NCBI GenBank assembly: GCA_046563655.1
Contig: CM102288.1
Location: forward strand, 4,030,001 to 4,094,000
Direction of reading: 5' to 3'
DNA length: 64,000 bases
Origin: Yuukianura sp. NJ FZ-2021
Taxonomy: Eukaryota
Position numbers and translations under genes: made by a program
In this document: piece by piece, positions 3,001 through 50,141 of the stretch
Layout: every line of letters begins with the position of its first letter
Numbering within the stretch: position 1 is the stretch's first letter
Notes under the pieces: generated by a model
The model's database searches: none
The model's input: the letters and a program-made list of their open reading frames with translations, nothing else
What the model was told of the DNA's origin: nothing

Positions 3001-6000
3001 AATTGGTTTTGTAATTGGAAAACTGCTGTTCTTTTCAAGAGAAATGAGGTTGTAGGAGAAAGTAGAGTGAAAGTACGATGTTGTGGAGTTCAGAAGTTCC
3101 TGGAAGGGGTCCTGGCAGTAGTTATATGCAAATGGAGTACAGACATGCTTGTAACTACGCTGCTAAAAACTGCCAGTCACTACACCATGCATAATTCAGC
3201 ATCACGACAGCCTCGTCTGCTCCACTTTCACTTTTTCAGCGCTTCCCTTCCCAAAACTGTCAAAATTTATGACTTCCTCCTGCTCCCACGTTCCAGAATC
3301 CCATTTTACAAAAATTCCAAATTCAATTCAAAATTTAAAAAAAAAATCAAAAAAAGAAGAGTTTATCATTATCTTAGAATTCTAACTTTGTACAAAGATT
3401 GGGTGCGAAATTTTGAAGCAAATGAGCTCAACTTTGCGCCCAAGCAAGCAAATTTTATTTTAAAAAATTTGAAATTTTTAGGTGGAGTCTGAGGTGGGGA
3501 TTGTGCGTCAGTTTCCATTTTCGTCATCTTTGCAACGTATGTCAGTCATCACGCGGACGCTGGGGGACTCCGAGTACGAAGTGTACTGCAAAGGCTCACC
3601 GGAGATGATCTCAACTCTAGCTCTGCCACAGACAAGTAAGTTTTTTAGAATTTAGAAAAAGTATTCTTAGATTTTGGAAATTGTCGAACAGAAAAAAGTT
3701 TATGGCTGTTGGGAAATCTGAGAATCTGGAGTATCTCTGTGATTCTCTGAATCGCTGACGCTTTGAGGAAGTGTAGTTTGACCTCCCACACACTTTTTCT
3801 AAAAAAAACTTTAAGCGTAGTTTGTTCTAAATTTAGAACAAAGTGTGTCTCTCCATAGTTGCTGTGTGGTCATTACCAAAAGTCCATAAGCCAAATGAAT
3901 GGAATGGGAGTTCCAGATGGTTCCAGAGAAAGCGACTGCTTTCACTCTCTCAATTTCTGAAACTAATGACTTTTCTTAACAAAATTCTAAACTTGCTCTA
4001 AAAGAACAAACTTTTTCTAAAATTTTCAGTTCCGAAGAATTTTGCAACGATCTTGGAGTATTATACGCAGGAGGGATATCGCGTCATTGCAGTGGGGCAT
4101 AAGCGATTACCCAAATTGAATTATGCCAAGGTACATTTTCAAAACTACAATTTTGTAAAACAGTTTTTCAAAAAACAAACTTTTTTAAATTTCAGGTTCA
4201 ACGAGTCGTCCGTGAAGAGCTAGAAACAGAACTGACATTTCTGGGATTAATTGTGATGGAAAATCGACTGAAGCCTGAGACTACTGGAGTTATGGCGGTG
4301 CTCAAAAATGCAGCTATCAGAACCATCATGGTAACAGGTAAGGCGGCAAGCCCGGAAAATTTCAAATTCAAAATTTTGATTCCGGACATCACAAAATTTG
4401 GAAAATTTCCAGGCGACAACTTGTTGACGGCTATAAGCGTAGCGAGGGAATGCGACATGCTAGAAACTGCAGACAAAGTGATCGTTTTGAGCCTTGAAAC
4501 TGGCACTGGAGAGGCCAAGGACAAAATTCCAAAAGTTTTGTTTACTGTGGCCAACAAAGTGGTAAGATTCTCAAACAAAAAAAAAGAAGTTAGGAATTCA
4601 AAATTTTGAAACTTTTGGATAGTTTTTCTCAAAATTTTTGTTTATTTCAGACTCCGAAGGGAATGTCATCTTCTGGAACAGAGTCATCCTTGATGCATAG
4701 TCCTCAAATGTCAATTTTAAATGGAAACACTGCATCTCCTGGAAGTTTAGAAAAATCCATTTTGAGTAACATAGAAGTTGAATCGCGAATTCCAAAGAAT
4801 CGATACCACTTTGCCCTCACTGGACACGTTTTTGCTATTATCCGGACCCACTATCCAGAACTTTTGTCCAAAATACTCGTTCGAGGAACCGTTTTTGCTC
4901 GGATGAGTCCGGAACAAAAGCAACAACTTGTTGAACATCTCCAGTCACTCGGATACTTTGTCGGTAAGTTTCACATTTCAGGTCACATCACAGGTCAAAA
5001 AAATTTGAATTCAAAATTTTGATTTTCAGGAATGTGCGGTGATGGAAGTAACGATTGCGGAGCACTGAAGGCAGCTCATGCCGGAATTTCCTTGTCGGAT
5101 ACCGAATCGTCCGTCGCGGCGCCGTTTACGTCGCTCCAGCCCAACATCACTTGCGTACCACACTTGATCCGTGAAGGTCGCGGTGCCCTGGTGACATCAT
5201 TCGGAATTTTCAAGTACATGGCTGTATACTCCTTGACCCAATTCGTCTCTGTCATGATCCTGTACTCAATTTCTTCAAATCTAACCGATATCCAGTTCTT
5301 GTATATCGACTTGTTCCTTATCTCAGTCTTCGCCTTCTTCTTCGGCAACATCGGACCCAGTCAAGGTCCGTTGGTCAAAACACCGCCTTCGGCTAGTCTC
5401 GTGTCACCTCCACCAATCGTCTCCATTATCCTCCACATGATATCGATTATCGGATTCCAAGTTCTGGCATTCGAACTTATCCAAAAACAATCCTGGTTCA
5501 CACCGTACGAACATCGGTTGGACGATGAAGAGTGGGCCAGCCTCTGGGAGTTTGTTGGATATGAAAACTATGCCTTATTCACAATCACTTGCTTCCAGTA
5601 CATCATCATGGCCATTGTCTTTTCAAGAGGGAAGCCCCACCGGAAGTCAATTGTCCACAATCCAAGACTCATCACATCACTAATCATTATGACAGCATGC
5701 ACAATCTACTTGGTCACATATCCACATGTTCCTTTCCAGGAAATCGCTGACATGTTGATGCTCAAACTACTTCCACCAGAGCCATTCCGATGGATCATGG
5801 TTGCTATTGGTTGTTCGCAGTTACTAGTGGCCATGTTCATAGAATACTTCTTAGTGGACTACGTCCTGACTCAAAAGATTGGCAAGTATGTCCAGTCACG
5901 ACGAAGAGAAAAGTCTAAGAAAGAGTACATTCGGATTGAGTATGACCTGTCCAGAAGATCCGATTGGCCGCCGATATCCAACACTCCGTCAGTTGACTCT

Positions 6001-6198
6001 GTGTATGTAAATGAAGAGAATGAAAAGAGCAATGGGATATCGGAAGTAATTAATCATGAGCAATTTAACGGAGCATTCGTCATTCCGACTCCTCCCGAAC
6101 ATGGTCAAGAAAATGGAGGGTGGCGACGTTCTATGTCGTCACTTCCTAGACCACGCCCTGCTAACCATCGACCGCGTACTGTTAGTTCTAATAGTTAG
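1..6198 (+). CDS. P5B-type cation/polyamine-transporting ATPase (ATP13A2/3-like), 5'-partial, multi-exon
   Basis: Exons ~1-82, 1306-1524, 1587-1718, 3482-3635, 4030-4130, 4197-4338, 4413-4561, 4651-4963 and 5030-6198 join through GT-AG introns. Motifs: CFDK|TGTLT phosphorylation site (split by intron 83-1305), [53 protein letters not shown], and C-terminal TM helices. Confidence 0.95.
1961..2064. repeat. Intronic imperfect inverted repeat (42-bp arms, 20-nt spacer), MITE-like
   Basis: caatgggtggctaca (1961-1975) is the exact reverse complement of tgtagccacccattg (2050-2064). The arms continue inward to gccacttt/aaagtggc. Further gtggctac-like motifs flank it (~1915-2105). Confidence 0.75.
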
Positions 6199-7114
6199 CA
6201 TGCTTAAAAAGATAGTTTTAAATTTAAATAATCTGATAATTTAGTCTGATTAAGTTTAATTTTAATTATTTAGATAAAGTTAAGTTATGAGATTTAGAGT
6301 GGGCGCTAATGACAATAGAAATTTTAGCCGAATTATGAAACAGAGGGTTATTTCCGGATTGATCCTGGTGGTCAAAAGTTCCTCTTGTTCTTGAATTTAC
6401 TTCGTGCGGTCAATTAATCAATTGAATCTCACTTCTTAATTAGTAATTCAACTATGTACAATAAGGAAAGTGAAAAAAAGCCTTTACAACTTTTGAGGAA
6501 AAATGCGATTTCTTAGTGTTTCCAAGACCCATTCAAGATCCATTCATCCCATGCTTTTAAATTCTAAAGAGAAAGTGTACTTTTCTTACTGTTTAAATGT
6601 TACCATAAACAGTGTTTTAGGCTATTTAAAGTTAATTAAAGTAATTAAAAGTGTAAATCACTACTAAAAGGGACAAATAAACAGCAAATTAATTTTTGCA
6701 ATTCTTTCAAAAATCGGAAACGAGGAAAGCGTCTGCTAATTTTGCAGTAACCCGTTTTCCAGCTTCATACGTGGTTTTCGAGGTTTACACTTTGTTTTCA
6801 ACTTTGTACACTCTGTTTTCATTTCAAACTCCTCTCCTCTCTCGTGGAGTCGCGTTGTCCGCAGACGCACTTGGCAACCAGGTTTATGATCTTTCAGTTA
6901 AGATTGAATTGACTTAACTAGCAATTGTTAATCGATTTCATACCAAGACAAACTAACTGACCAGACCACTATACGGGACGGGTAAGGACAAGGAGCGTCT
7001 TGGGTCACCGGACCTGCTAAACTTGTATTCGTAAGTTTCATTAATCATCTGATTCTGGTTGTCTATTTTGAAATCATTAGACACTTGACTAGTGTAACTG
7101 TAATCGATAGGTAG

Positions 7115-9800
7115 ATGAATCGTACCCAAATTTTGGAGGCAGTTGAAGCCCTTCGACAAAGGAAGTGTCGTCCAGAACGAGAGGCCATAGCACACCACAT
7201 TCTCAAGAAACATGGAACCCAGTTTCAAGACATTTTTAATGATTTGGAGACCATTGTAGACGAAGGAGGATTGGTCAAGGTTGAATACAAAGGAAGCATC
7301 AGCTACCGAAGCCCAAACGCCTTTGGTAATCACGATTTCAATACCGAGCTTAACCTACCAACTTTATTTTCGTTAACGATTTAAACATTTTGTTTTCTTG
7401 TTTAGCTGCTGACACATCTCCATTACTCACAAAACACGCCAAGGTGTTAAATTCAAATAGAACAACTCGTTTCATTCTATCTGCCGTCACTGAGCTCTTG
7501 GCCGAAGACGATTCCTATACCAAACTCGGTATCCCCCGTGAAGCAATCATTTCCAAACTAATTGAGTACGACTCCCAGCGTTTCAATAAGTTAAACACAG
7601 CCGATCTACTTCAACGAGAAGTTACTGCCGGTACTCTAGTACCGACAACTGAAGACAGCCTACTACCAAAGGATCTTCATCATAACTTTGAACCCGTTTC
7701 AACAAACACTCCCAAACCAAAGCCCTTCAGTCCCAAGAACATGAGAGGACGTAAACCCGCTGCCGGATCCAAAGCTGCTGATGCCAGTAGCTCTCCGTCG
7801 ACATCAGGTACCGCCTTAACAGAAAGTTCCACCGAAGTCTTTGCTGTCAAATCGCTTCCAGTCCCAGTGTCTCCCAGTCCAAGCAAACCTCTGAGATCAT
7901 ACGGACGAAAAGCAGGTGCCGCTTCGTCTGAAAAAGCAGATAAAGACAACACAGAGGAACCTGCTTCCAAGAAGAGTGCTGCTGACAAGAAGATGCCGAC
8001 ATTGTCTAATAGTGCCGAAGAATCTCCTGATGAATCGAAGAACGGAGACAAGATGCCCAGTTTAGTTACACCGGAAGAACCAACTGGAAGAAGTGTTCGA
8101 AATAAGCGGAAGAAAGAAGTGTTTGATCCTTCAGATCTTCCGAAAAAGCGAGCCACTGTCCCGACGACTCCAGCGGGGACCAAGGAAAAGGAAAAGTCTG
8201 TTCCGGTTTCTTCAAAAAAGACAACACCTACACCTCCAACTGCCCCAAGGACTAAACGACCTTACCGGAAAAGAAATAAAGAACCGGAAGCACAAGAGGA
8301 GGGTAATTTACAGATTACTTTTTCTGCAATTGGAATCAATTAACTTAAAATTAATCGCACTTTGTAGTTTCCAAACCTGAGCCACCTGCTACTGTCTGTG
8401 GCGACTGTAACAAGGAAAAAAATAGCGAAGGGCAGGCAGAAGCCTTTCTCATCTGTTCTGAATCTGAATGTACTGCAACTTGTAAGTTAATTTTCAACTT
8501 AGCACAGTAATTATAGTAACTAAGGTTACATTAGAATTGAATGCTTATGGTATTGGTAATTCCAGATCACCCGTCCTGTGTCGGGTATGAAAAGGAAGAG
8601 GCCTCCATTCTCATCGAAAAAGGAACTTGGCAATGCTTTGATTGTAAAGCATGTAAACTCTGTCAAGCGAAACCTGTCCAGGTACGACTAATCCAATTAA
8701 ATTCTGCCAATTACTGAAGTCCAGCTGATATGCCTTGGTTTGTGTGTTGCAGGGTCCTGGAACTCTTATTTGCTCTGGTTGTGACCATGCATTTCATATG
8801 AGGTGCCTCAAGATCAGAGTCCGACCGTTTGAAGACAACTGGCTGTGTCCAGAGTGTAAAGAACAAGAAAAAGCAGAAGGTACAGCCGATGCTAAAGCAA
8901 CAGAGGAGGCTGTGGAAGAAGACGAGGAGGAAAAAGTTGACACAACGAAAGAAAGTGAAGCAAAAGAAGCTGAAGAACGAGAAACCGAAGCTGAAGAGGT
9001 GAAAACTGCTGAAGAAATCAAAAAAGTGGAAGACGTATCAGTTTCAGCGACTGTTGACGACACCCCAACTGCAACTACTGTTGCTGAAGTTGAAAAAGCA
9101 GAGGGTCAAGAAAAAGAACAAGAAGCAGAAGCAGAGAAAACAGCTAAGGTCGAAGAGGCTGCTGAACCTGAACCACCCCCACCCAAGAAACCTCCAGTGA
9201 AACGTTTGTGATTTCAATTTTAAACTTTTTTTTTTACTGTTTGCTAAAATTTTTTCGATCTTGACAGTTGGCCGACCACCGACTAAGAAACGAATCATTA
9301 GTTTGAGCCTTGAGAAGAAGTCAGAGGCCAAAGGAAAAGAGGAAGCAGCTCCAGCATCTTCTTCTGCTGGAGCTAAAGACGAACCAAAAGATGACGATGA
9401 CCTTGACATCCCCCTTGATGCTTCTAAGTGGACACCTTCACAGGTTGAAGCATACTTCAAAAAGCATGGACTCCGTGATGAGGGAATTCTGTTCAAGGAA
9501 CAGGTAAAGATCACTTATAATTTAATTAATTAAGTACTTAATTAATCACGAGGAACCTGAGGTTTGTTTACTTTCACTAGGAAATAGATGGACTCGCACT
9601 CCTCCTCATGGTATGTCTTAAAAATTGTTTGTGCTATATGTTTTTTGAAAAGTATTTCACAAAATGTTGATTTTTTTTAGAGACGACAGGACATTGTTCA
9701 TGGGATGAAACTTCTACTGGGTCCAGCCTTAAAAGTATTCAAGTTGGTGGTGGCGCTTCAACAAAGTGGGGGAAAGGTTGATTCAACAACGATTACCTAA
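7115..9800 (+). CDS. SAMD1/atherin-like chromatin protein: SAMD1-type winged helix + probable second WH + double PHD finger + acidic linker + SAM domain
   Basis: The N-terminus ILEAVEALRQRKCRPE...LVKVEYKGSISYR matches the SAMD1/KAT6 WH. Spliced exons 8368-8482, ~8566-8681 and 8753-9203 give CGDC...HPSC...WQCFDCKACKLC...CSGCDHAFHMRC...WLCPEC. The SAM domain reads WTPSQVEAYF...FKEQ|EIDGLALLLM|RRQDIVHGMKLLLGPALKV. Stop TAA 9798-9800. Confidence 0.88.
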
Positions 9801-10103
9801 ACTGACCAGTGACATGGACTGCACATGCGATTAATCAACTATTTTAATTAATCAAGTAATCATGGGTAAAATCTATTTAGGAATGCATGTTTTCTTTTTC
9901 TAACATCCTAGATCTGTGGCTCTTTGAATCAACTGTTGTAGCTCAACAATTATGAATTCAGTTAATTAATCAGCAATTACTTAGTTTGAAAACTAATCAG
10001 TAGTTGCTAAAATATGTTATGTTTCATGTGTATCCTTTGTTGGCACTTGGGGATTCAGCAGTTGTTGATAATAAAAAGATTCAGTCTTTATTTTTTCGGT
10101 GTT

Positions 10104-11376
10104 TCATTTGGTGGTGACAAGTTCCTTGGGCATGTGCCCAGTGTCACCAACTTTGAACAGTGTCACATCACCATCAGGGTTAATTTGGATTTGGGTGATA
10201 CTTCCATTGGCAAGGCTTATCCTCAACCATCGTTCTGGAGGAAATTGGAGGGCACTAAAACAATATTAAAATGGCCACAGTTATCATTTGAACATAATTT
10301 ATGAACGCACTTTGGAAGAACGTACCGGCAACAGAAATATCGAATCACATCTGTAAAAAAACGAACACGATTTACTTTAGTTGTTTTTTAAGTCTGAATT
10401 GTAGTTGTACTTCAAAGATTTACTTGCATGACAGACGATTAGTTCGAATGAATCTTGCTCTTGATCTGGATCTGCTCTGTGGAAATACTTTCGGAATGCT
10501 GCTTCTATCCTCATTTCGTCATTGAAGTACTGGTAAATATCAAATCAAAAAATACAAGTTAATTAACCTGAATTCTAGAAGGTGCAGATGAAAATGACTT
10601 ACGCGAAGCATAGGGTGCCAATGATTGCCAGGATCTGGTTCTGGAAGGAGAGTGTTCGGTTAGTTCTTGATAGTGTTTGTAATTGGCTTCAGATGAAAAC
10701 CCTTACGTATCGGAGCACCTTCCCTTAGCAAGGGGTCAACGTTAAAGGAGTTCAACTTATTTGGGGATTCGGGGCACAGACTGCCTCCAATGATTTCCGC
10801 AGTCTCCAGGGCCCTTGACATATCCGAAACAACGTAACGGTCAAAGTTCGGGATGACCTCCTTCAGTCGTTGGCCAGTCAATGCAGCCTGTTTCCTTCCA
10901 AGGTCAGTCAATCTTCGCTCGCTGTCGCTCAAGGGCTTCTGGTCGTATTGGCCATGACGAATAAGGAAAATATTCCGCTTAGCCTTTGGTATTAACCCAG
11001 ACAATTCCTCCAGGTCCTCTTCAGAAATCGGTTTGACTTTTTTCGCTCCGGGACGGAAGTGACGAGCCAATAGTCGGAATCCTGGATCTCGTCTACAGTA
11101 ACACGAGCAGAGTTTGTAATTAGTAATCCCTTACTGAATGTTTACTGTAAATTGATAATTATTTTTGTCTTACTTGTCCCAATTGAAATCCCAATCCCAA
11201 CGGGAAGATCGATACGACGGGACATTGTCATCACTTGGGTTTGGGTCAGAGTTCAGTTTTTCTTGTTCTTTGGAGTGAATGTTCTGGAGTAAACAAAATG
11301 ACCCACCGAGCCCAACACCTCCAAATGCAGCGATGGCTTTCCAAAGTATTCCGCGTTTTGTCGCTCCGGTAGCCAT
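10104..11376 (-). CDS. PGAM5: Mitochondrial Ser/Thr phosphatase PGAM5
   Basis: N-terminal TM anchor, WDFNWD motif, catalytic [47 protein letters not shown] and GDTGHMP. Six GT-AG-joined exons, including a 25-nt microexon (10326-10350). Confidence 0.95.
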
Positions 11377-12185: not shown

Positions 12186-14830
12186 TTACATGACATCTAC
12201 AAAGAACTCATTTGGATTCGACGACCCCGAGTGACTCTGACCTCCATAGTTCTGGTTGTGATTGGTAACATCGCCATTTCCAGCGTGACCTTGACTCAAC
12301 ATCATGTGATTGGCATACGAAGGTGGGACTGGTGGAAGATTTCCCATCCCATGACCTCCTCCTGGTCTCTGAATCAGAATACTTGACCCTGACTTCCTGG
12401 AGCGATTCGAGTCTGAATCTGAGTCCATCGCCCTCATTTCCAGTGGTGCTGAAAATCCCTGTTGCATTCCATGACTATGATTGTCTCTGACGAGATGCTG
12501 CCTCTCACGCCTCGATCCAGCAGTATCATTGCTACTTCCACCTGATCAAAAAGTCAAAGGTCAAAGGTCAATACAAACCAAGTTAAACATAAACGTTTGT
12601 AAGTTTTAAGTTTGTGATTAATTTATAACCTGATCCACTATGGAGACTCTGTTCTTGTGGATAACTGTAGGCATTGCTCTCGTATCCCCCAGTCATGTAT
12701 GGCATTGGGGCAAACAGGGGAGCTCCGTTGGTCAAAGTACTGGACGAGTATGGATTGTTCCAGCATACTTGAGGTGCTGAAGCCATAGGGTGGCCACAAG
12801 CATCAGTCACTTCAGACTCAGTCTCATCTCGGATTCGCAAGGCTGCCATTGAGGGTACAACGATGTCTCCAAAGACGTAGTAGCATTGTTCAGAAAATGT
12901 CAACTTGTTGACAGTGTGTCGAATGTAGCCTCGCTTGAGCATTTGGGCAGCAAACTTCCGAGCTTCCTTTCGCTCACCGAATCCTTTGACGTGGTTTAGG
13001 AGCCAATCAACGACGTCTGCTCCTATAAAAGCATTCGGGATGACGATTTTGAGCCAATTTCTGTCTCGAATCTCCAACCCCGAATCGGGTTTCTGCATTT
13101 CGCGAACTATGAGTGGCATTTGAGTGTTGATGCTCAACTGAATAATTTGTTCCTCCACGGTTCCTGAAAATCATAAAAATAACGTTGCTAAATTCAATTA
13201 AGAGAAGTTGATGAAATGAATTCTGATTTGGTGAATTTTCTTACGTTCTGTTTCTGGTAGACTTGAAGTAAGAGAAGAGCCAGTTGATGTCATAGTGGTC
13301 ACAGAAGGCGGTCGAGGTGGATACTCGCCAGTAGCAGCAACGTGGGCAACCCAAGCTTCTGGATCAATTGGTCTGACAGGTTCCGTTCTCGGAATTGTAA
13401 ATGAACCTTTGGGATTCATGTCCCAGCATTTGGCAACAACAAGTTTCACTGGTCCTGGCTTTTGGGCTACTTGTCTCAGAAAACGAACCTAAACTCCCAT
13501 TAGTTAAATTAGACTTTAATTAACTTTTGAAAATCTAAACTTTAGTTAACTTACCGCCTCGTCGTTACTCATGTTCTCAAAGTTTGTGTCATTCACTTGC
13601 AAAATCATGTCACCAGGCTCAATCCTTCCATCCTTGGCAACTGCTCCTCCTTTCATGATGGATCCAACGTAAATCCCTCCGTCTCCACCTTTAGTATTGC
13701 TTTCTCCAATAATCGAAATCCCAAGGAAACTTGGCCCATTGTCGTCTGGATTCATGTTGAGGACAACGTTGATAATGTTAAGACTCATAGATGAATCCGT
13801 AATGGAGGAAAAACTGGACGTCCGCGACATGGCATGCTGTCGGTGCTTCTTGCGTCTCTGACGTCTTTGATGTCCAGCCTTTACCCGTGACACGCTGGTG
13901 TGATCGGTCGTGGCGGTAATACGACTCATAGCGTCGTCGTCGTCCGATTCCAAGAAAGTAGTCGTTTCCAAATCTGAACTCATGATGGACGACTCGTAGT
14001 GGTGATGACTTCGGTGCTTTCCATTTAAACCATCAAATCTGCTGTACTTGTCCATTCGAAAGTTCTGGTCTCTTCTTTGACTTCTATGACCTTGACCTGG
14101 GGCGTTGAATCCTGTAAAGCCATACTCCACTTGAAGTTTTTCACACTGGGACTGGGATGCTAAAATCTGGTTTGAGTTTACTTTACCTCTCCTGGAACTT
14201 ATGACAGACTCCGTTTCGGTACATGTGGTTGTATCGTCTGGAGGTGGCAAAGGTTTACTCAGAGATCGGATTCCTCTCGGCCTGCAATTTCAAATGAACG
14301 TGAAAAATGACACGTCATCTAAAGAAAGTCATGTTAGTTTTAGTTTCATACAAAGGACGTCCAACGGGGCGTCGAAGATCCGAAGTTGTAATGCTGTCAG
14401 CACATTGCGAATTAGAATCCGAAACATTGCTTCCCTCGGAGGAGACGAGCTGAAACAAGATCAAAGTCAATTTTTGATCATTCCTTAGCATGACAATACC
14501 TAACCTAAGAAAGAACATGACCGGACTTACCCAAGAAATAACTTTACCGTTGAAACATGGCAAATTGGCGTCGTCATCTACAATTTCCTCTTTTACTTCC
14601 CTACAAAACAAACCAATTTGATTGTAGTTTGGGTTTGCTTCATCTTTACATTGACAAACGTTTTACCCAAATTCATCATCGTACGACTTGAAGAAAAACT
14701 TGTAGTTTGGTCGGCAAAGAACATTTTTAAAATCAGCAAGGGTGACACGATCAATTGGAACGGGAACTTTGACAAGGTAGGGTGTCTCTTCCTCATCGAT
14801 GTGGTAGATGATTCTCGTCTCACCCGACAT
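12186..14830 (-). CDS. dsh: Dishevelled (DIX-PDZ-DEP)
   Basis: [24 protein letters not shown]. Ser-rich [27 protein letters not shown]...[35 protein letters not shown]...[12 protein letters not shown]-terminal EFFVDVM. Confidence 0.97.
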
Positions 14831-15852: not shown

Positions 15853-17137
15853 ATGGCTCAGGTTCCAGTGATTCTGGTAAGTGCTGTCTTTTTGTTTTTA
15901 CTGTTGTGTGTGGCTATTTTCGGGTGTAAGGTTCGAACTTGTTTGTAATTGCATCAAACAACTGAAGTTAAACTGATTTTAATAAGAAGTTGGGAGATGC
16001 AACATTACGATTACAGATAAGTCGGGATTCCAAAGCCATTGCATTTGAACTTTTGCTTTGGCCAATACAGCCCGGCACATCTTCATGCTTCATTCATTCA
16101 TGGAAGCGAATTAAATTGAAGTAGACTAATTTTCATTTCATTTATAGTCACGGCGGTTATCGACGTCAGCCGCAAGAAGCCAACTCGTCAAGGTATATAT
16201 TCATCCTTCATTCTGTTTTGTACTCCTTCCCGTTCCTCTGCTACAAGGTTCCATTTTTGTTGATTTGCAGGCTCCAATTCAAGTGTTTGGGATTGAAGGT
16301 CGATATGCGACTGCTGTTTATTCTGCCGCATCCAAGGAGAAGCAGTTAGACGCTGTGGAGAATGACATGAAACAGATCAATACACTGATCAAGAAGAAGG
16401 GAGTGTTTGCTGATTTCCTCCAAAATCCATCCTTGAAAAGAACAGAGAAGAGGAATCTGCTTCAGACTACTCTAAGCGCAGCCAAAGTTTCAAAGCTGAC
16501 CACTAACTTACTAGGTAAATCGTTTCATATTATTTTTATTCCTTCAGTATTTACTCATGTTCTTTTTATGTACTTATAGCACTGTTAGCTGAGAATGGCC
16601 GACTAAACAAATTGGATGGAATTACCAACGCTTTCGCTACGATCATGTCTGCTCACAGAGGAGAGATTCGGTGTGAAGTCATCACTGCTAAAGTGAGCAA
16701 TTCACGCAAAATCTTTTTTCAATCACCTTTAGCATTTACCAACTTTTCTAAAACAACCTTGACCCAATATGCCAAGGTTATTTTGGTAAATGCAATATGA
16801 AGTCTGGGGATTCCAAGGTTGATGTATTCCATATGCATTGCCCATTTCACCCCCCAAACAAGCCGCCAATTGACGATTTACAGTAATTTCAATGAAGAAA
16901 GGTTGTGCGTGCTAAACTTGTGTTTTAATTTTCCAGCCTCTGGACAAAGCTCTTCAAACAGAGCTAGAAGCTGCTCTCAAGTCATTTGCCAAGAGTGGAC
17001 AAACAGTTCAAATCAAAACAGCCGTTGACCCTGCCCTGATTGGTGGAATGATTGTGTCCATCGGAGACAAGTATGTGGACATGAGCACTGCTTCTAAAAT
17101 TAAGAAATACAAAGGAATCATCGAAACTGCCATTTAA
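15853..17137 (+). CDS. ATP5PO: Mitochondrial ATP synthase subunit O (OSCP)
   Basis: [43 protein letters not shown]...LLAENGRL...ITAK|PLD...[21 protein letters not shown]. Stop 17135-17137. Confidence 0.96.
15944..16082 (+). ncRNA. Putative box H/ACA snoRNA in the first coding intron of OSCP
   Basis: Hairpin 1 (gtaattg/cgattac base, ttgcatc/gatgcaa) is followed directly by an H box AGATAA (16015-16020). Hairpin 2 has gtcggg/cccggc and gcca/tggc stems with an internal pocket. ACA lies at 16077-16079, ~65 nt upstream of the 3' splice site. Confidence 0.7.
16731..16863 (+). ncRNA. Box H/ACA snoRNA, SNORA14/ACA14-like, in the last intron of OSCP
   Basis: Hairpin 1 has a perfect 11-bp stem gcatttaccaa/ttggtaaatgc. 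H box ATATGA 16795-16800. Hairpin 2 base tgggg/cccca. Pocket TCCAA + ATTTCACC is complementary to the conserved 18S rRNA segment GGUGAAAU-UC-UUGGA. ACA (16858-16860) is 14 nt from the pocket. Confidence 0.85.
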
Positions 17138-34986: not shown

Positions 34987-37900
34987 ATGGACGAGGAGAA
35001 TGCTTCCGACAGCGATGAATACTTTTCCGATACTACTGAAGTCATGCCGACTGGAGACATCGATATGAGGGTTCCGACAGGCACTGGAACTGCTGCTCTT
35101 CCGAGTTCTGACATTCCAGAGCCATACGATCCAGAGAAATGGGAAATATCTAAACCGAAAAACCGAAATGATTCATTGCCAGGCACAAGTGCCATGACCA
35201 TAAGTACGAAAACCGCCGCCATTGGCATTCACTGTTCGTCATCCGTTCCTTCCCTCGCAAGTACCTCTCCAAGAACGACACAGCCATTGCCATGGTCTCT
35301 GTGTATGAACGCAGATGAAACCTTACTACAAAAAGGGGTGCGTATACGAACTTCGCATACTGCAAGACCACAAGACGGCGTACTTATACGTTCATCTTCA
35401 CCGCTCATGATGGACTTGACGCTCGACGACGAAGAATCTCTACTCGTGGACTTGTCTAGCGAAAACGAACCACGACCAATTGAGAACGTCGAGGATAAGG
35501 AAAACGAATCGGTGATGCCCCATGTCCGTGACACTATTTCGGAAGATGGTTCAGTCGTACCCGTTGTCCGTGATATCATTTTGGAAGATGCTCCGTTGGC
35601 GGCCGCTCGTGGTACCATTGCCGAAGATCTTTTGTCTACGACGTTTGCAGAGATAGAGAAGACACGTCAGGCAGTTCGGGAGGAACTTGACAAGGCCAAA
35701 GTACTCGAAGAAGAACAACTTGGAAAGTTTCGTCAACTCAAACGATTTTCTTTGGGATGTAGGATTTTTCCTCCTTTACGGCCGTCAAAATTTCATACCA
35801 TTACGTTTACAGTGCAGGTAAGAAACAGGATTTACTAGAGAAGTAGGTGGAGAATCATTGTATAAGTTAACCTTTAACTTAAAGCATTTCAAGCAAGCAT
35901 TTCATTTTCACTAGGAACTGTTCAACCCCATGACTCACGCGATACTTGAACCACATCCAAAGCAATTCCATCCTAAGTGGACTTCTGACTATGTCCCAAT
36001 GCCATGCTGTCGTCAAAATGAACATGTTGTTGTTAAAATCATGAATACTTCCAGAACCAATATTGCTGGTGTCATAGAAGAGGTATCTACTCATACTAAT
36101 CTAGAACCTATTATGCTAATTCTGAATTCTATTTGATTGGAGTCGAACCAATTACTTTGATTTTTGTTGCAGAAGAAAGTGAAGACTGAGGAAACGATCT
36201 CTAACTGGAACAATATCCAGCGACAGCTGTCTAAACCGATTTGCAGCTGCGACGACTTGAATGAACGAATCAATCGGATCACAGACGTCAAAGAGGAATT
36301 TAACGTTTTGAAATATTTAATTGAAGAAGTGAGTGCAAATCCTGTAGTAGTAGTTCAGTTCATCTTCATCACAACTAATCGTAAACTTGTACGACTCTGG
36401 TCTGTTTTAGCTACTGCCATCCGACGAAGGATACAATTTCTTTGCCGAAGTTCTTCCCTTCATGATCAAACTCTGCTTGGGTTTGCCATTCATTTTGACT
36501 TGCCCGCTACCTCTACTTCGACGCTACATCAGTCACAGCATTTCTCTGACTCAACTCCAAATTGCTTCACTCCTGGCCAATGCATTCTTCTGTACTTTTC
36601 CAGCACGTCTTCAGAACGAAGACAATTATCCATCAATTAACTTCAACGAGTAAGCTAAAAGCTTTGATGATCCATGAGTTATTGTTGTTTTCAGTTTTCT
36701 TCTTTTCTTCAGTGGTTGTTGTTTTGTAGACTGTTTACATGTGATGCAGAAGATAGCCGTTTACAAGCCAAGGCACAGAAACTACGCTGCATTCTGCACT
36801 ACTTCCAGCGATTGTCAAACAAAGATGAAGGTAAAGTCGTATATTAAGGATACAACAATCAAGTTACATTTTCGTTACATTTAGCTCACAATGGTGTTGT
36901 GACCTTCACAAGAAAGTCACACCTATCTGGTCCCGACTGGAGTACGTCAACGAAAACTTTTACAAACCTAGTTGCTTTGTATAACGGAAGTATCGAAACG
37001 GAAGGTGCTGGAATGCTTCAAGTCGATTTTGCTAATAGGTAACATCTTTAATTTTGGCCAAGATGTAACAGTTGGGTGAATTAATTGTTGTGTGGTTGGT
37101 GTTGCAGATATGTCGGAGGTGGGGTTCTAGGGAGAGGGACTGTCCAGGAAGAAATCCTGTTTGTGATTTATCCAGAATTGCTGATCTCAAGACTTTTTAC
37201 TGAAAAGCTGTTTGCTGGAGAAGCTTTACTCGTTACCGGTTGTGAACGTTTTTCGACTTACTTTGGCTACTCGTCTACTTTCACGTTTGGTGGAGCTTTT
37301 TATGATGTAACTCCACACGATCCCAAAGGACGGCGAGAGTCACAAATTGTAGCTATTGATGCACTTTATATCAGAAAAAAATTGACACAGTTCAACCCCA
37401 AGTTTATGGAGAGAGAACTCAACAAGGTAAGTCACATTTTAATTTTCGCTGAACGCTCGCTAAATCGCTTATTGAGTGAACATTAAATTTGATACTGCTT
37501 TGAATTTTTTTAGGCTTACATTGGGTTTTCCATTCCAGTCAACTGCAATGCGACTCCAGTGGCAGTTGCTTCTGGAAAGTGGGGTTGTGGAGTATTCAAT
37601 GGGGATCCGGAACTGAAAGCACTTCTACAACTTATGGCAGCATCTGAATCTGGCAGAGATTTGGTGCTCTTTAGCTTTGGAGATTCAGAATTTCAGGAGT
37701 CTGTGGTGAAAATGTATCAAATAATTAAAGATAAGACTGTCGGTAAGATTAATGGCTATGAATTGAAATTCAATTCGATTCAATTTGTTTAATGTGGAAA
37801 GTACAAAGTACTGTTTGGTTTTAGGCGATGTTTGGAAATACTTGGTTCAGTACTACAACCTCTTCTGCTCCCCAAACGAGAATGACGACAAACCACCAAA

Positions 37901-40960: not shown

Positions 40961-43310
40961 TTACTCCTGTCGATTAATTAGAATTAGTTGATGAGGTTTA
41001 GGAATTAAAACAGGAGCTGCGTAGTAGTCCACCTTGAGTGGAGGTGAATTCGGGTCCGGCTTGACCTGGAATCGCTGGAACAAACTTGTAGTGAATAGAA
41101 ACAGTTCATCTCGAGCTAAACTTTCACCCAGACAGACTCTTCTGCCGGTTCCGAACGGGATGAGGTCGTCACAACGAATGACCTTTGAGCCGTCAGGGGT
41201 CAAGAAGCGTTCTGGACGGAAGTTGTCAGGGTCACCCCATACTTTGGGGTCATGCATCACTCCGAACAGATTTGGACTGATCAAAGTGTCTTTGGGAATG
41301 TGGAATCCACGGAACGTTGTGTCTTCGGTGGCTCGATGCATCACGGCCATTGGAATGATGGCGCCAAATCGCATGACCTGAATCAAAATTACGTCAAAAA
41401 CTGTTAAAACAAGTATTTCAAGGGCAGAAAAATTGCAAAAATGTTTGTAAAATTTGATCAAGGTTATTTAAGTTAAACATAAAAGAAACTGAAATTCAAA
41501 TTTGAACTGAAATTAAAGTAATAAACCTAAAACCTTGATTGCTGCAAATTAAATAAGTGTGTGGCGTTTAGTCATAAATTGTCTCACCTCGGATATCACA
41601 GCTTCAGTGTATGGCATTCTGGAATGAATGGATTGTGATTAATTCAAAGTGAGATAAATGTAATTATAGAGTAATTAAGTAATTACGTAATTAGTAATTA
41701 AGTGTTTACAGTGGTTTGTCAGATAGCGATGGAAGACGGGACAACCCCACCACTTCCTTGATCTCTTTGAACAATTTCTCTTGTTTTTCTGGATACAAAG
41801 CCAACAGCAGAAATTCCCAAGTCAGTGTTGTAGAAGTCGTTTCTGCCTATTTTTCAATGTTTAAAATTTAAAAATGTTTCGTTTTTCTGAAAACCGAAAA
41901 TTCAAAAGAAAAGTGACAAAAATTACCCCAGCCACAAAGAGATCGTTGATCACACCAAGCAAATTGCGTTCTGCAATTTCAAAAATTGTAAAATTGAAAG
42001 AATTGTTAATTTTCGTTTTTAAAATTTTGTTTTTGACCTTACCTCCTTCAGATTCGAAAAAGCTTGACTTTTGGTTAGAAGTTTTCTTCACTTCGGTCAA
42101 GTAGACGTCGATGAAGTCCCTCGGTGCGTCTTCCTGCAAGGTGTCCTGGTGGGCCTTGATGGTGCCCTTCATCCAATCCATCGTTCGCTTAGTCTGTTCT
42201 GCTCGTTCCTTAGGATTAGATCCGCCCATTAGAAATCTTGGCACGATCTTCCGCAAAACAGGGAAAAACAGAGCTAGGGACATCACTTTACTCTGACTAA
42301 TCGTCCTACAACACAAGTATTTCATAAAGTAATTACAGTAATTCAAGTATTTCATAAAGTAATTACAGTAATTCAAGTAGAATTACTTACGTAGTTAGTT
42401 GTTTAATGAGTTGCCCTAGGATGGGATCCGAATGGGAGTAGCGTTGACCACTCACGAGGGACCAGAGAGCATTTAAAACAGCTAATTCAAAAAAAAAGTT
42501 CCGAAATTTCAATTCAAAAAGTTAAAAAAAACGAATTTGAATTGTTGTTTTGTTCAAATATGTTTGAGCACAGAAATCAGTTACTTGCCTGCGTTGAACT
42601 TGTTTTGAGTGCTGATTGGTGTTCCAGCATCAGCACTTTCCTTGAAAGTTTCAATCAGTTCTTTCACTTCCTCTTGCACCAACCCCTCCATTGACTTTTT
42701 TCCAAATCCAAAGTCTCTCAAGTTTTTCAAAATGAAGCGTCTCTGTTCAAACAGCACAGTTTTAGTCTGTTTTTTAAACAGATTTAATTTTTTAGTTTAC
42801 TTTAGCTTACTTGATCCACCCAGTCAATTCCATCTTGGAAAATCACTCCTAAAACATTTTGAAATGTCAGAAATTGCTATTTTTTCGAAATTTATTTTGA
42901 AATTACCGCCTGGTTTTCCTCCAGTTCTGTCCAGGAGTACTTGGAACCTTGGTCTTCCGCTCAAAGCGACTTCTGCCATGGCTTCCCTGATGGCTGCAGC
43001 GCTGTTGAGAACTACTGTGGGGTATGGCCCAAAGTAGACAGAAATGACATCTCCATACGTCTCACTCATGCGCATAAAGTCCTTGGAAGGCTCAGGAGAC
43101 AAGTTGTGCAGATTCCCAATCAAAGGGAGTGCAAAAGGCCCTTAAGTCGAATTATGAACATTATTCATATTCACATGTGGCTTCAAAGCAACTTTGTTTA
43201 AAAAAAAGATATACGTACTGACCTGGTGGAAAGTTTTTGGGACGGCGTTGTTTCCAGAAAACAAAGGTCACGAGAGCTACCAGAAGCAGTAACAGAATTT
43301 GGAACATCAT
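40961..43310 (-). CDS. Cytochrome P450, clan 2 (CYP15/303/304-like), intact
   Basis: N-terminal TM + FPPGP, WVDQRRF, LRDFGFGK, I-helix FVAG|AETT, EVMR, PERF and heme motif PFGTGRRVCLGE. One intron needs a GC donor. Confidence 0.93.
42314..42379. repeat. Intronic 30-bp tandem duplication
   Basis: caagtatttcataaagtaattacagtaatt twice exactly, plus a partial third copy. Confidence 0.85.
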
Positions 43311-43798
43311 GATTCCCGTCGTTTAGTACAAAACCTCAGTTTTCTGTTTAAAATTCTAAATTTAACCTAAAGTTAAGTTCTGTCTTAGTTTGAACGTGCT
43401 TTTAAATGCTTGTCCATTGCTCATAATGGTTTTAGTAGTTTGAAGTGCCATGACTTTCATTGTCTTTAAGCAGCTGATTAGCACAAAACTTTGAGTGCTT
43501 TGACCATGAGATTTTTAGTAGCGTTAACATTCACAATTCCAACTTTTTTTTTGTAGAAAATTGTGTGTGAATTGACTCATCTTCAGGCATAAACTGTGAG
43601 TCGTGGTTTTTAGTTTAGTTTAGTTAGGTAGTATAATCGTGGCGTCTCGTGATCATTTGCGAAGCTTTAGACAGACATCCTCTTGAATTCAAAGGTGTGG
43701 ACAATTAATCATAGGTTAGACTAACTACAAACACTTAAAATTTGCCTCTGAGTGAGATTTTTTATAAACTTGATTTTCGTTTATGAATTAATTTGTGT

Positions 43799-45545
43799 TT
43801 ATTGTTTATTTTTGTGTTCGGGGGCATAAGCTAGAGTAAAGAGAGCCTCAGGTTCACATACGAATTTGTAAACGTATCTTTCTCCCGCCACTTTTGACAT
43901 GATCCCCTTCTCGTAGTAGTAACGAAGGGAACGACTCAACTTGTCATAGTTCATCGCAGGCCGGTTCTTGATCAACCCCCACCGTCTAGCCACCTACAAG
44001 TTGAAAAGAAAGTTGAGGTCAAGGTCATCAGGTCAAAGGTCAACTGTACCTCTTCTGGTTCAACCAATTTGAACTCCATGCCTCTCCCGGTCCAGCAGAT
44101 ACAAGCAGAGTTTGATGGGTCATCTAATAAGTTCACTAGAAATTGCCACAGTTGAAGGGACCCCCGACGCCCAACACTTCCAGTCCAACCCTGACGTTTC
44201 AAAAATTTATTTTTGAAATTTTGAACATAGGATTTCAAGTTTTTGAAAAATTAAATTTTACAATCTGGGAAATAACCTGTTGATGAACGGAAGTCCACGA
44301 CACGGTTTGTGATCTTCTAGGACTCGCAGACTCTGAAGTTTTTCAAAATCAAACACACAAAGTTGAGTTTTCAAAAACTACGTTTTTTCAAAATTAAACG
44401 CCAACGCGCATTCAAAATAAGAAGTTTCATGAAAAAGTTGGTCAAAAATTTAATCGAGTTGATGGAGAAAACAGCTTCAGGGCAATTTTTTTAATATTTT
44501 TTTTTTCAAGAAGATTTAAAACAAGGAAAAGCGGATCAGCATCAAATTCAAAATCCCTTTACTCATAAAAAATTTATACATGAAACACATTCTACAAAAT
44601 TTCAAAATTTGAAAAGTTTAAAGCTTATTTAGCCTTTGCCCAAAAGACCGAAAAAATGAGACCGGAAAAGTGAGATTTAGTAATTGAGAAAAGTAGATTT
44701 TGAGAAAGTGAAAGTGGAGAAAGTGCTTTTGGTGTGTTAAAAGCTTAATTACTTATTCATGCCACAATTATGAAAGTTAGGTTAGGGAGAAAGTGAAAAC
44801 CCTAAGTTATGCAACAGCTTTCTGTTTTCTTTTCATTTTTCAAAAAAGCTACACGCTGAAATAAGCCCCATTTTATAACGGCGTATTGCTCAAAAATCAT
44901 CATTTCCGTTTTTTGGAAAGTAAAAATTGAAGTTCCAAAAATATACATCTTTTCAATTAAGTTTTGAGCCAAAGGTGATTAATTTTTTGAGGTTGGAAGG
45001 GAATTAGGAGTCGTTGCATGCCGGAAGTTGAAAAACTGAAATTTCAAAAAAAAATTATGAAAAAGTGAAAGTCACCTTCAATGCTGTTGGGAGCGTGATT
45101 TGGAGGGGGTGGCGGTGAAAGCGTGAAGTCAGTAGGATGAGTCTGGGTCGTCATGAGCCCATGAAATTTTACATCCACGTTCAGCGGAGAGACGCTCCTG
45201 TTTCAAAAATGTTTGAATGAAAAGTGTTAATTAGGAAGTGTGAAAATGGAACTTTCTCATTTTTCATTTCTAATTAATTTTGAGACCAGGAGAAAACGGT
45301 TTTCCGAAATCATGCTGAAAAGTGTGAATTGAGAATTTTAGTCAACTGATTTACCCATATTCTCGTTCCCGGTGGGCCGGAACTGGAAGTTGCAGGGTGG
45401 TGGGGTAGTCTTCGTAAGATGGAGACCCACCATTGGCCCCACCATGGTGGGTCTGATGTGGGAGATGAGCTGGATGGTGATGGTGGTGGTGCGTATAGTA
45501 ATAACTCCCGCTGCTACTTGTGTAGTCAGGAGATGAGCAGTACAT
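43799..45545 (-). CDS. PEA3-subfamily ETS transcription factor (ETV1/4/5, Ets96B-like); may extend to upstream exons near 47450-47560
   Basis: ETS domain [15 protein letters not shown]...EPEE|VARRWG...[38 protein letters not shown]. Upstream exons ~44278-44333, ~45077-45197 and 45355-45551 splice in frame (His-rich N-terminal region). Confidence 0.88.
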
Positions 45546-49688: not shown

Positions 49689-50141
49689 TTCCAAATAAGC
49701 TAAATGTTAGAGGTAAACAGGTCACACGATTCTTGTTTCTGCTGTGGTTCAGCTAAGAATACAACTGCCACTCAATTCAAAATCAACCAACTTTCAAATT
49801 CAAAAGTTGTTGACCTTGAAGAAGGAGTTCAGAAGTTGTTGGACACTAAATTGGCCGAAACGTCATAAAATTGGAGTGACGCTTGTACAACTAAAGTAGA
49901 GTGAGAATTTTGTTTTTCGATAAAAAACGTTGTTAAGAATAATTAAATTCAACATGCGATCACGCGAAATAAGTCATGAAATTCATATAATTAGTGCAAT
50001 TACAATTTCCTACGCAATCGGTGTAAATTACACTGGATTTTATTTGGAAGAAGGAAGTACAGTGAAGAAATTGTATTTCTATAACACATTTCAAAAAATT
50101 TAAAGAAGATTGAAAATTTTTTAGAAGATGTCAAGAAAGCT

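Follow-up and report, generated by a model that had tools for sequence, protein, structure and literature searches.

Positions 7115-9800 of the window, by which we mean the whole stretch of 64,000 nucleotides analysed here, raise the question of whether a single protein joins the N-terminal reader module of a KAT6/MOZ-type acetyltransferase to the SAM domain of SAMD1 and, if so, whether it is of ancestral type or chimeric, both of which had been put forward in the first-pass annotation. We consider it likely that the locus holds the local orthologue of a family that spans the Metazoa, carries no acetyltransferase domain and has the order WH1-WH2-double PHD-SAM; this family is best understood as the form of SAMD1 found in invertebrates, probably the ancestral one, and its WH1, SAM and PHD domains would act as proposed below; throughout, we infer all binding activities from conserved domains and residues.

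The plus strand from 7115 to 9800 reads as one intact eight-exon animal gene. Independent re-splicing arrived at the coordinates of the first-pass annotation and gives a coding sequence of 2175 nt that specifies 724 amino acids, with seven introns that are all GT..AG and consistent in phase. The single frame described earlier, with a winged helix, a second winged-helix block, a double PHD finger, an LGRPPTKK motif and a SAM domain, is present in all its parts after re-splicing and is laid out as follows.

7115-7325, plus strand: exon 1, with the start codon and WH1, a SAMD1-type winged helix (aa 1-70 and one base of codon 71).
7406-8302, plus strand: exon 2, delimited by its splice sites, with WH2 and then a long basic low-complexity linker (aa 71-369).
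7447-7674, plus strand: WH2, the predicted second winged helix (aa about 85-160), from AlphaFold2 and VIA-align.
7750-7764, plus strand: RGRKP (aa 186-190), basic and AT-hook-like, C-terminal to WH2.
8104-8130, plus strand: KRKKEVFDP, a family-conserved basic motif upstream of the PHD pair (aa 304-312).
8368-8481, plus strand: exon 3, the first half of PHD1 (Cys 380, 383, 399, 404).
8566-8681, plus strand: exon 4, the remaining PHD1 (His 409, Cys 412, 431, 434) and the start of PHD2 (Cys 437, 440).
8753-8857, plus strand: first part of exon 5, the remaining PHD2 (Cys 453, 456, His 461, Cys 464, 478, 481; Pfam PHD, E 1.3e-7).
8864-9190, plus strand: second part of exon 5, an acidic low-complexity region (aa 484-592); the exon ends at 9203.
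9268-9503, plus strand: exon 6, with the AT-hook-like motif GRPPTKK (9270-9290), a linker and the start of the SAM domain (from about 9417).
9581-9610, plus strand: exon 7, 30 nt between GT/AG sites, encoding EIDGLALLLM, the core of the SAM mid-loop surface.
9681-9800, plus strand: exon 8, the end of the SAM domain (to about 9761), a short tail and the TAA stop codon (9798-9800).

Exon 1 has an AG acceptor directly 5' of its ATG and the donor GTAATC. The model is collinear with its relatives at all of its junctions, that of exons 1 and 2 included, and the junctions of exon 7 restore the contiguous sequence of relatives (for example P0153 and P0012) and of the family profile. Exons 3-5 add up to 681 nt and have the same phase on both sides, so that skipping them would preserve the frame. 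The spliced protein reaches 307.2 bits (E 1.5e-95, Z=1) with a profile made from 24 relatives and excluding the springtail row, and the highest score among 200 shuffles is 0.8 bits. Of the invariant columns of alignment A1, 39 of 43 are conserved in the model, as are 8 of the 20 near-invariant ones, the latter count being unreliable at PHD2, which is misaligned by mafft --add; zinc ligands were read from the HMM alignment instead. One gene without a histone acetyltransferase (HAT) domain and with the order WH1-WH2-double PHD-SAM, as had been claimed, is supported. Pfam finds MOZ_SAS or zf-MYST on none of the exons and on none of the 45 open reading frames scanned, out of 70 of at least 110 aa in the window. 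An AATAAA lies downstream of the stop codon at 10070-10075, and the next gene encodes a His_Phos_1 protein on the minus strand (10663-11130).

WH1 (aa 2-66) matches Pfam SAMD1_WH (PF21524) over residues 5-65 with an E value of 8.4e-23 and 80.7 bits (cut-off 24.5). The best match of exon 1 in the PDB is the SAMD1 winged helix (6LUI, 44.4 bits, versus 35.7 bits for KAT6A WH1), and the family profile separates the two further (112 versus 58.6 bits). The description of the N-terminal module as KAT6-type consequently stands in part: WH1 is nearer SAMD1, and the double PHD finger is nearest KAT6A in typical family members only. Human SAMD1 contacts DNA through R43, R45, K46, R48, R56, Y87, K88, S92 and R94, as named in the available text of PMC8115922; eight of these nine residues are identical in the model and R56 is replaced by His. 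By analogy with human SAMD1, WH1 would bind DNA at unmethylated CpG.

The SAM domain (aa about 647-712), spread over exons 6-8, scores 93.5 bits against the family profile once spliced. In the PDB, the SAM part of that profile has its strongest similarity with SAMD1 (118 bits), followed by L3MBTL3 (70.6 bits) and PHC3 (64 bits). Eleven of the 14 residues given for the ML/EH ring interface of SAMD1 in the accessible part of PMC8115922 are identical, and conservative substitutions account for the remaining three (S to A, L to V and L to M). The domain may self-associate head-to-tail, and it may also recruit other MBT/Polycomb-type SAM proteins, so that several WH1 domains would bind chromatin together.

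An AT-hook consists of an R-G-R-P core with flanking basic residues. The model has no true RGRP core, only LGRPP (aa 597-601) and RGRKP (aa 186-190), and LGRPPTKK (aa 597-604), without the first Arg of the core, is AT-hook-like only. In close relatives (P0002, P0004, P0006 and P0153) residues 197-206 include RGRK motifs, and relatives P0058, P0072 and P0112 have the true RGRP core. The exon 2 linker has a net charge of +15; the basic linker and AT-hook-like motifs might add unspecific DNA affinity. KRKKEVFDP aligns to the segment 'krkrikkvfdp' of the family profile, is also found in the family consensus and is probably a nuclear localization signal. The acidic region (aa 484-592) has a net charge of -24 and is unaligned to the family profile.

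The double PHD finger bears on how far the protein can be taken as a reader of histones. Its ligands form two C4HC3 sets (Cys/His 380, 383, 399, 404, 409, 412, 431, 434 and Cys/His 437, 440, 453, 456, 461, 464, 478, 481), and alignment by HMM to the double PHD finger of the family shows that all 16 zinc ligands and the spacing between PHD1 and PHD2 are kept. Judged by these ligands, the pair is maintained as a two-zinc-pair fold in the source lineage. A full bivalent reader, which would bind the H3 tail (unmodified R2/K4, acylated K14) as in MOZ, MORF and DPF3 in addition to CpG binding and SAM polymerization, and which could compete with Enok/KAT6, has this conservation in its favour, and the model also retains W429 and D457, the counterparts of MOZ W257 (floor of the acyl-lysine pocket) and D285. 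We nevertheless regard this reading as improbable, since most of the residues by which MOZ holds the H3 tail are lost from the source lineage as far as its sequence tells: hand mapping of 20 histone-contact residues named in the available text of PMC3902925 finds only six identical. Acidic pocket 1, whose Asp pair (MOZ D282 and D285) anchors H3R2 and is described as 100% conserved among double-PHD proteins in the accessible text of PMC8538644 and PMC3902925, is incomplete, D282 being replaced by Ser454 and D285 kept as Asp457. In the acyl-lysine pocket, C259 is identical along with W257 and two changes are conservative (L242 to V and I260 to F), but F211 is replaced by Asp, S210 by Gly and N235 by Ala. 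Moreover, MOZ D276 becomes Pro, and KPVQGPGT occupies the place of the acidic residues that precede PHD2.

Three further features argue against bivalent reading. The zinc knuckle of PHD1 is C-x4-C versus C-x2-C in relatives, a two-residue insertion; the PHD2 fragment encoded by exon 5 is nearer in the PDB to UHRF1 and MLL3 (33 and 32 bits) than to DPF3 and KAT6A (26 and 23 bits); and close relatives P0006 and P0153 have only a four-Cys remnant there, which suggests relaxed constraint in this clade. With most MOZ contacts lost, the H3-tail binding that the first-pass annotation had proposed is doubtful for the model protein, whose PHD pair probably does not read unmodified H3R2/K4 and H3K14ac in the canonical way. 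Typical members of the family point in the other direction. The double PHD finger of Lingula P0058 scores 119.8 bits with KAT6A, 109.5 with KAT6B, 100.5 with DPF2 and 89 with PHF10 and retains both Asp residues and the aromatic wall, and because typical members keep such a KAT6A-like double PHD finger, H3 reading was probably a property of the ancestral protein.

The second block (ILSAVTELL...LLQREVTAGTLV, aa about 85-160) is WH2. It has no Pfam match at E<=5, and a Foldseek search with its model returns nothing at E<=0.001 (best E 0.03). AlphaFold2 nevertheless predicts it as a confident winged helix (mean pLDDT 84.9, pTM 0.72, topology H-H-H-H-E-E). In a wide VIA-align search the KAT6A winged helix ranks first (Z 11.3, r.m.s.d. 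1.9 over 75), with further matches to the winged helices of SAMD1 (Z 10.5) and ZMYND11 (Z 9.6) and to the linker histones H1.8 (Z 8.4) and H5 (Z 8.2). As WH2 has a net charge of -3 and the Pfam match is absent, it need not bind DNA. Searching exon 2, which is mostly low-complexity, for homologues among longer proteins yields nothing at E<=0.001. Over WH2, the amphioxus and hemichordate members of the family match Pfam SAMD1_SHD (PF24971) with 26.3 and 23.6 bits, below the cut-off of 27, and hhalign aligns WH2 to vertebrate-type proteins with 65% probability and E 5.9e-5 over only 26 columns. The small helical domain of vertebrate SAMD1 seems to be a remnant of WH2, a link drawn from these sub-threshold Pfam scores and this short hhalign match.

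The rarity attributed to the architecture does not hold. Searching 1.84 billion representatives with exon 1 gives 297 matches at E<=0.001, and when the best 150 of these are compared with the model by BLAST, 25 have WH1, the PHD pair and SAM, 13 have WH1 and SAM only, 5 have WH1 and the PHD pair only, and 106 have WH1 only, the last being mostly short (median 264 aa). Among the 25 full-architecture proteins, Pfam (E<=0.001) finds SAMD1_WH and PHD in 25/25, SAM_1 or SAM_2 in 21/25 and MOZ_SAS in 0/25. At E<=1e-5 there are 692 database proteins, many named automatically as 'KAT6B-like' or 'atherin'. Named members with the same Pfam set come from Cnidaria, Mollusca, Brachiopoda, Annelida, Nemertea, Bryozoa, Chelicerata, Myriapoda, Echinodermata, Hemichordata and Cephalochordata, and members from Collembola were also found. 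An Atlas search with exon 1 retrieves only SAMD1_WH clusters, with scores below 0.9. The nearest named relatives are springtail proteins, one of them already called 'Atherin [Orchesella cincta]', and the highest identity, 40% over 391 columns, is to the O. cincta protein. The model is thus one more member of a family that gene prediction already recovers from hundreds of invertebrate genomes and that is known to databases and uncharacterized, and is ordinary for its source stretch. The expectation that novelty would fall if the architecture were known is borne out as regards database annotation, while a literature search found no characterization and no paper describing a WH1-WH2-double PHD-SAM family.

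In the family tree, which contains no KAT6 sequences, the model groups with Orchesella and Folsomia in a clade of five rows (SH-aLRT 100). The tree recovers deuterostome, lophotrochozoan and arthropod groups and broadly follows animal phylogeny, which, together with a collinear architecture from cnidarians to amphioxus, favours an ancestral type. The alternative of a chimaera, meaning a fusion that is local or of recent date, is not supported; the same architecture occurs in cnidarians, lophotrochozoans, arthropods, echinoderms, hemichordates and amphioxus, and a recent gene fusion was considered and rejected. That WH1 and SAM are of SAMD1 type and the typical double PHD finger is closest to KAT6A likewise supports 'ancestral-type' and not 'chimeric'. 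The vertebrate-type proteins of the tree, which we infer from Atlas cluster rows to be chordate, form a long branch at an unresolved fork, away from amphioxus. Because of this placement, one-to-one orthology with vertebrate SAMD1 is likely from the sequences but not proven.

Vertebrate SAMD1 (atherin) consists of a winged helix, a disordered region, a small helical domain and a SAM domain (Stielow et al. 2021, PMC8115922, available text). It shares with the model the N-terminal SAMD1-type winged helix, the C-terminal SAM domain, a long disordered middle and the absence of an enzymatic domain, whereas in the model WH1 is followed immediately by a folded WH2, a double PHD finger is present as well, and an acidic Glu/Lys-rich region takes the place of the Pro/Ala-rich one of SAMD1. 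Among nine WH+SAM-only proteins scanned at E<=0.001, PHD is found in 0/9 and SAMD1_SHD in 3/9. KAT6 proteins are about 2000 aa long, against 724 aa for the model. KAT6A and KAT6B (MOZ and MORF) and Drosophila Enok have the architecture WH1-WH2-DPF-MYST, DPF being the double PHD finger (PMC9881136 and PMC9908889). They share with the model the N-terminal succession WH1-WH2-double PHD, and the WH1 of both is of the 'SAMD1-like WH' group, but in the model a SAM domain stands in place of MYST and WH1 is nearer SAMD1. PHF10/BAF45a and DPF1-3 of SWI/SNF, according to the available text of PMC8538644, combine a winged-helix-like region with a double PHD finger; PHF10 matches positions 80-351 of the family profile (WH2 and double PHD finger) at 134 bits, but both PHF10 and DPF1-3 are without a SAMD1-type WH1 and a SAM domain.

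The family could be a KAT6/Enok-derived paralogue that lost MYST and captured a SAM domain, as its NCBI names suggest. The N-terminal order common to KAT6A/B and Enok (PMC9881136), the proximity of the typical double PHD finger to KAT6A and KAT6B over DPF2 and PHF10, and the KAT6A winged helix as best structural match of WH2 are all in keeping with such a descent. However, WH1 and SAM, by which SAMD1 is defined, are far closer to SAMD1 than to KAT6A WH1 and other SAM domains, respectively, and no protein of KAT6 length occurs among the best 150 WH1 matches, the longest being 850 aa. The amphioxus member moreover has its sub-threshold match to SAMD1_SHD, and the family profile scores PHF10 at 134 bits compared with 127 bits for KAT6A. 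The PHF10 score equals that of KAT6A because the PHF10 match reaches into WH2, and since the two scores are alike, the double PHD finger is no unique pointer to KAT6. Descent from KAT6 by loss of MYST is thus highly unlikely in our judgement.

The reading of the family as ancestral SAMD1 can be extended to a scenario whose chances we regard as even. SAMD1 would have arisen before the cnidarian/bilaterian split as a protein with a CpG-binding WH1, a WH2, an H3-reading double PHD finger and a polymerizing SAM domain, the first three modules sharing their origin with the N terminus of KAT6; vertebrate SAMD1 would be a reduced form, its PHD pair lost and its WH2 turned into the small helical domain, and the PHD fingers would be decaying independently in the springtail-type lineage. 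If so, most animals hold a HAT-less counterpart of KAT6, which might link the reading of CpG and H3K14ac to SAM networks of the MBT/Polycomb type. The invertebrate proteins suggest that vertebrate SAMD1 is reduced, and they are a further class of double-PHD protein, of which mammals have six according to the available text of the review PMC8538644, where the terms 'SAM domain', 'sterile alpha' and 'winged' do not appear. In the accessible literature, winged-helix work on SAMD1 and KAT6 concerns vertebrates and Drosophila Enok and treats SAMD1 as WH+SAM, and no description of such a four-module ancestral SAMD1 turned up. The family may deserve attention; tractable animals such as sea anemone, sea urchin, amphioxus, spider and tick keep a well-conserved PHD pair.

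Hardly any credence can be given to the view that the model is an artefact of hand splicing, made from neighbouring WH/PHD and SAM genes or from a decaying pseudogene: exon 7 is indeed just 30 nt long and intron 5 has a weak donor (GTTTGT), but that exon restores the conserved EIDG..LLLM core exactly, the intron from the PHD/acidic part to the SAM part measures 64 nt and no stop-free alternative is called for, the frame is open over 724 codons with 39/43 invariant family columns retained, the flanking genes leave no space for separate promoters, and the same parts occur in one protein across many phyla. Two separate genes and a pseudogene were accordingly rejected, the frame being open and the junctions collinear with relatives.

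Database orthologues share the same collinear architecture and Pfam set under diverse names: P0012 from Orchesella cincta is entered as 'Atherin', P0152 from Folsomia candida as 'remodeling and spacing factor 1', and those of molluscs, ticks, echinoderms, amphioxus and corals as 'histone acetyltransferase KAT6B-like' or 'atherin'. All of these are automatically assigned names without reference to an experiment; 'histone acetyltransferase' is misleading for proteins without an acetyltransferase domain. Springtail proteins P0012, P0151 and P0152 have a large insertion in PHD2 that is absent from the model, and the C-x4-C knuckle of PHD1 is the model's own with respect to its springtail orthologues.

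The gene at 7115-9800 (+) belongs, as a new member, to a family of proteins, arranged as first winged helix (WH1), second winged helix (WH2), double PHD finger (DPF) and SAM domain, that is already abundant in databases under misleading automatic names and appears to be unstudied. Inspection of the region 6500-10500, with its stop-to-stop frames listed and splicing carried out independently of the first-pass annotation, gives the following locus:

ending at 6195, large open frame, upstream neighbour
7115-7325, +, exon 1
7406-8302, +, exon 2
8368-8481, +, exon 3
8566-8681, +, exon 4
8753-9203, +, exon 5
9268-9503, +, exon 6
9581-9610, +, exon 7
9681-9800, +, exon 8
10070-10075, AATAAA downstream of the gene
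10663-11130, -, His_Phos_1 gene (Pfam), downstream neighbour

All seven introns (64-84 nt) start with GT and end with AG in consistent phases, and the coding sequence of 2175 nt, closed by a TAA stop (9798-9800), encodes 724 residues. Against a profile built from 24 relatives, leaving out the springtail protein, the spliced product reaches 307.2 bits (best of 200 shuffles, 0.8 bits), confirming the single frame and domain order read in the first-pass annotation. An AG acceptor lies immediately 5' of the ATG at 7115 and therefore a 5' UTR exon is probably present upstream. The flanking genes leave no space for a second promoter within the locus. Exons 3-5 (8368-9203; 114+116+451 = 681 nt) are bounded by introns of the same phase. 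Their skipping would preserve the frame and give a predicted isoform of 497 residues, WH1-WH2-SAM without PHD pair, resembling vertebrate SAMD1; for PHF10, isoforms both with and without the double PHD finger are reported (PMC8538644). One relative, P0002, carries a 23-residue insertion precisely at the position of the exon 1/exon 2 junction, which resembles an intron that the gene caller failed to remove; the intron's position would therefore be common to both genes.

The WH1 encoded by exon 1 matches Pfam SAMD1_WH (E 8.4e-23, 80.7 bits) and, among solved structures, scores higher with the human SAMD1 WH (6LUI, 44.4 bits) than with KAT6A WH1 (7Y43, 35.7 bits). Of the human SAMD1 residues that contact DNA (R43, R45, K46, R48, R56, Y87, K88, S92 and R94, from PMC8115922), 8/9 are identical on alignment to the solved SAMD1 WH, the exception being R56, replaced by His. 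The SAM domain is spread over exons 6-8, one of them of 30 nt, and once spliced matches the conserved core of the relatives; 11 of 14 interface residues of the human SAMD1 SAM (same source) are identical and the other three change conservatively. In comparisons of the family profile with the PDB, SAMD1 ranks best both for WH1 (112 bits; KAT6A 58.6) and for SAM (118 bits; L3MBTL3 70.6, PHC3 64), so that both SAMD1-defining domains are, as judged by profile scores, of SAMD1 type. AT-hook-like motifs recur in the family and are non-canonical in the window.

The double PHD part of the family profile matches KAT6A (127 bits), DPF2 (124) and DPF3 (119); PHF10 reaches 134 bits because its match runs on into WH2. 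For P0058, a single Lingula protein, the scores fall from KAT6A (119.8 bits) through KAT6B (109.5), DPF2 (100.5) and DPF3 (98) to PHF10 (89). These scores place the family's pair in the DPF class, nearest KAT6 in typical members. The interpretation in the first-pass annotation is thus confirmed in part: a KAT6-type N-terminal module holds for the PHD pair of typical members but not for WH1, which is nearer SAMD1.

All 16 zinc ligands of the pair are present in the window, where Pfam covers only its last part (PHD, E 1.3e-7) because the pair is spread over three exons. Residues were mapped by hand onto MOZ (KAT6A) residues and pockets, taken from PMC3902925 and PMC8538644, respectively. Only 6/20 histone-contact residues are identical (W257, C259, L279, C281, D285 and W305); F211 is changed to Asp, D276 to Pro and D282 to Ser, and the acidic stretch preceding PHD2 is swapped for a neutral one. 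The PHD1 knuckle is C-x4-C as opposed to C-x2-C in all aligned relatives, and the best-scoring matches of the PHD2 fragment are no longer double-PHD proteins. The pair keeps its zinc-binding framework but few of the MOZ histone contacts, and the H3-tail reading proposed in the first-pass annotation is doubtful here. Two close relatives, P0006 and P0153, are the closest that bear a SAM domain. P0153, 427 aa long and encoded on a contig of 1409 nt that is probably a transcript, shows Pfam SAMD1_WH and SAM-type matches and no PHD. Reduction of the pair to a four-Cys remnant in both proteins, together with the lack of a Pfam PHD in P0153, suggests that the pair was lost inside the window's clade, in parallel to vertebrates.

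WH2 has no Pfam match in the window and is confidently predicted from a 50-row alignment (mean pLDDT 84.9, pTM 0.72) to fold as a winged helix, as the first reading had supposed. Foldseek returns only weak E-values (best 0.03); an exhaustive VIA-align search ranks three 'SAMD1-like' WHs at the top (KAT6A Z 11.3, SAMD1 Z 10.5, ZMYND11 Z 9.6), followed by generic winged helices (Z <=9.2) including linker histones H1.8 (Z 8.4) and H5 (Z 8.2). Pfam Linker_histone is matched over WH2 of hemichordate and coral proteins, and the small helical domain SAMD1_SHD, slightly below the Pfam cut-off, over that of amphioxus and hemichordate proteins. The latter matches and an hhalign comparison of the WH2 alignment with vertebrate-type proteins, which have WH and SAM without PHD (65% probability, E 5.9e-5, 26 columns), thus make the vertebrate small helical domain look like a remnant of WH2, a reading that is only partly supported.

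A HMMER search with exon 1 against 1.84 billion representatives gives 297 matches (E<=0.001). When the best 150 of these 297 are compared with the spliced model by BLAST, 25 show WH1, PHD pair and SAM (median 521 aa), 13 WH1 and SAM only, 5 WH1 and PHD pair only, 106 WH1 only (median 264 aa; probably fragments) and one no HSP. In a Pfam scan (E<=0.001) of the 25 and 15 other matches, SAMD1_WH and PHD are found in 25/25 and SAM_1 or SAM_2 in 21/25, two PHD and two SAM scores being under Pfam's own cut-off; the remaining four nonetheless align to the model's SAM by BLAST. None of the 25 has a MYST domain, and among nine WH+SAM-only proteins scanned none has a PHD and three have SAMD1_SHD. In P0007 (385 aa) and P0010 (850 aa) the recognisable domains are three or four SAMD1_WH in tandem (Pfam, 205 bits summed) and no others, an architecture not mentioned in the portions of the SAMD1, KAT6 and DPF literature examined.

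By two word-index searches, the nearest full-length relative is named 'Atherin [Orchesella cincta]' and the Folsomia candida homologue 'remodeling and spacing factor 1'. P0058 as query retrieves 692 proteins (E<=1e-5); the best 120 of these share the family's Pfam set, bear names such as 'histone acetyltransferase KAT6B-like', 'KAT6A-like', 'atherin' and 'zinc finger protein ubi-d4', and come from molluscs, a brachiopod, annelids, nemerteans, a bryozoan, chelicerates, a centipede, echinoderms, hemichordates, amphioxus and cnidarians. Many 'histone acetyltransferase KAT6A/B-like' entries have precomputed Pfam matches to SAMD1_WH, PHD and SAM only, with no MOZ_SAS; such names probably mislead, having been transferred on the strength of the shared N-terminal module. 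In the ESM Atlas, clusters with the same Pfam set are commonest in Mollusca and Arthropoda, and WH+SAM-only clusters in Chordata. A quick maximum-likelihood tree (44 rows, none of them KAT6, rooted on the two cnidarians) recovers groups of deuterostomes, lophotrochozoans and arthropods. In it the window sits with springtails in a clade of five rows (SH-aLRT 100), and vertebrate-type proteins lie on a long branch at an unresolved fork. The source of the window is thus most likely a springtail or an animal close to springtails.

The architecture is therefore not new to databases, and its novelty stands only with respect to the literature text covered: there we found neither an invertebrate SAMD1 described nor any protein of SAMD1 type that has PHD fingers, although the papers' figures and supplementary figures might show such sequences. 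In its available text, a 2025 SAMD1 paper traces SAMD1 from fish to mammals only, and a DPF review lists six DPF proteins in mammals with zero occurrences of 'SAM domain' or 'sterile alpha' (PMC8538644).

The proposed mechanism is modelled entirely on human proteins. WH1 would bind unmethylated CpG via helix 1 and the wing, and SAM self-association would make binding multivalent; the SAM domain may also dock other SAM proteins. WH2 may touch nucleosomal DNA, as MORF (KAT6B) WH2 does according to PMC9908889, though its net charge in the window is -3. The PHD pair was probably an H3 reader in the ancestor, and probably still is in most phyla; in the window's lineage it is likely altered or merely structural.

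Upstream, the long open exon 5023-6195 (+) contains a 20-residue stretch resembling the hinge motif of P-type ATPases; the exon has no Pfam match at E<=1e-5 and probably encodes the C-terminal part of a P5-type ATPase whose gene stops shortly before the locus. Downstream, 10663-63645 has ordinary animal gene content (Pfam, large ORFs):

12586-14289, -, Dishevelled with DEP and PDZ
16148-16576, +, ATP synthase OSCP
37085-37483, +, PARG
40964-52116, -, three cytochrome P450 exons
57043-57913, +, ATAD3
within 10663-63645, CH domain, pseudouridine synthase, GT8 glycosyltransferase and RIN1-like domain

The GC content of the window is 39.4% and its CpG observed/expected ratio 0.80.
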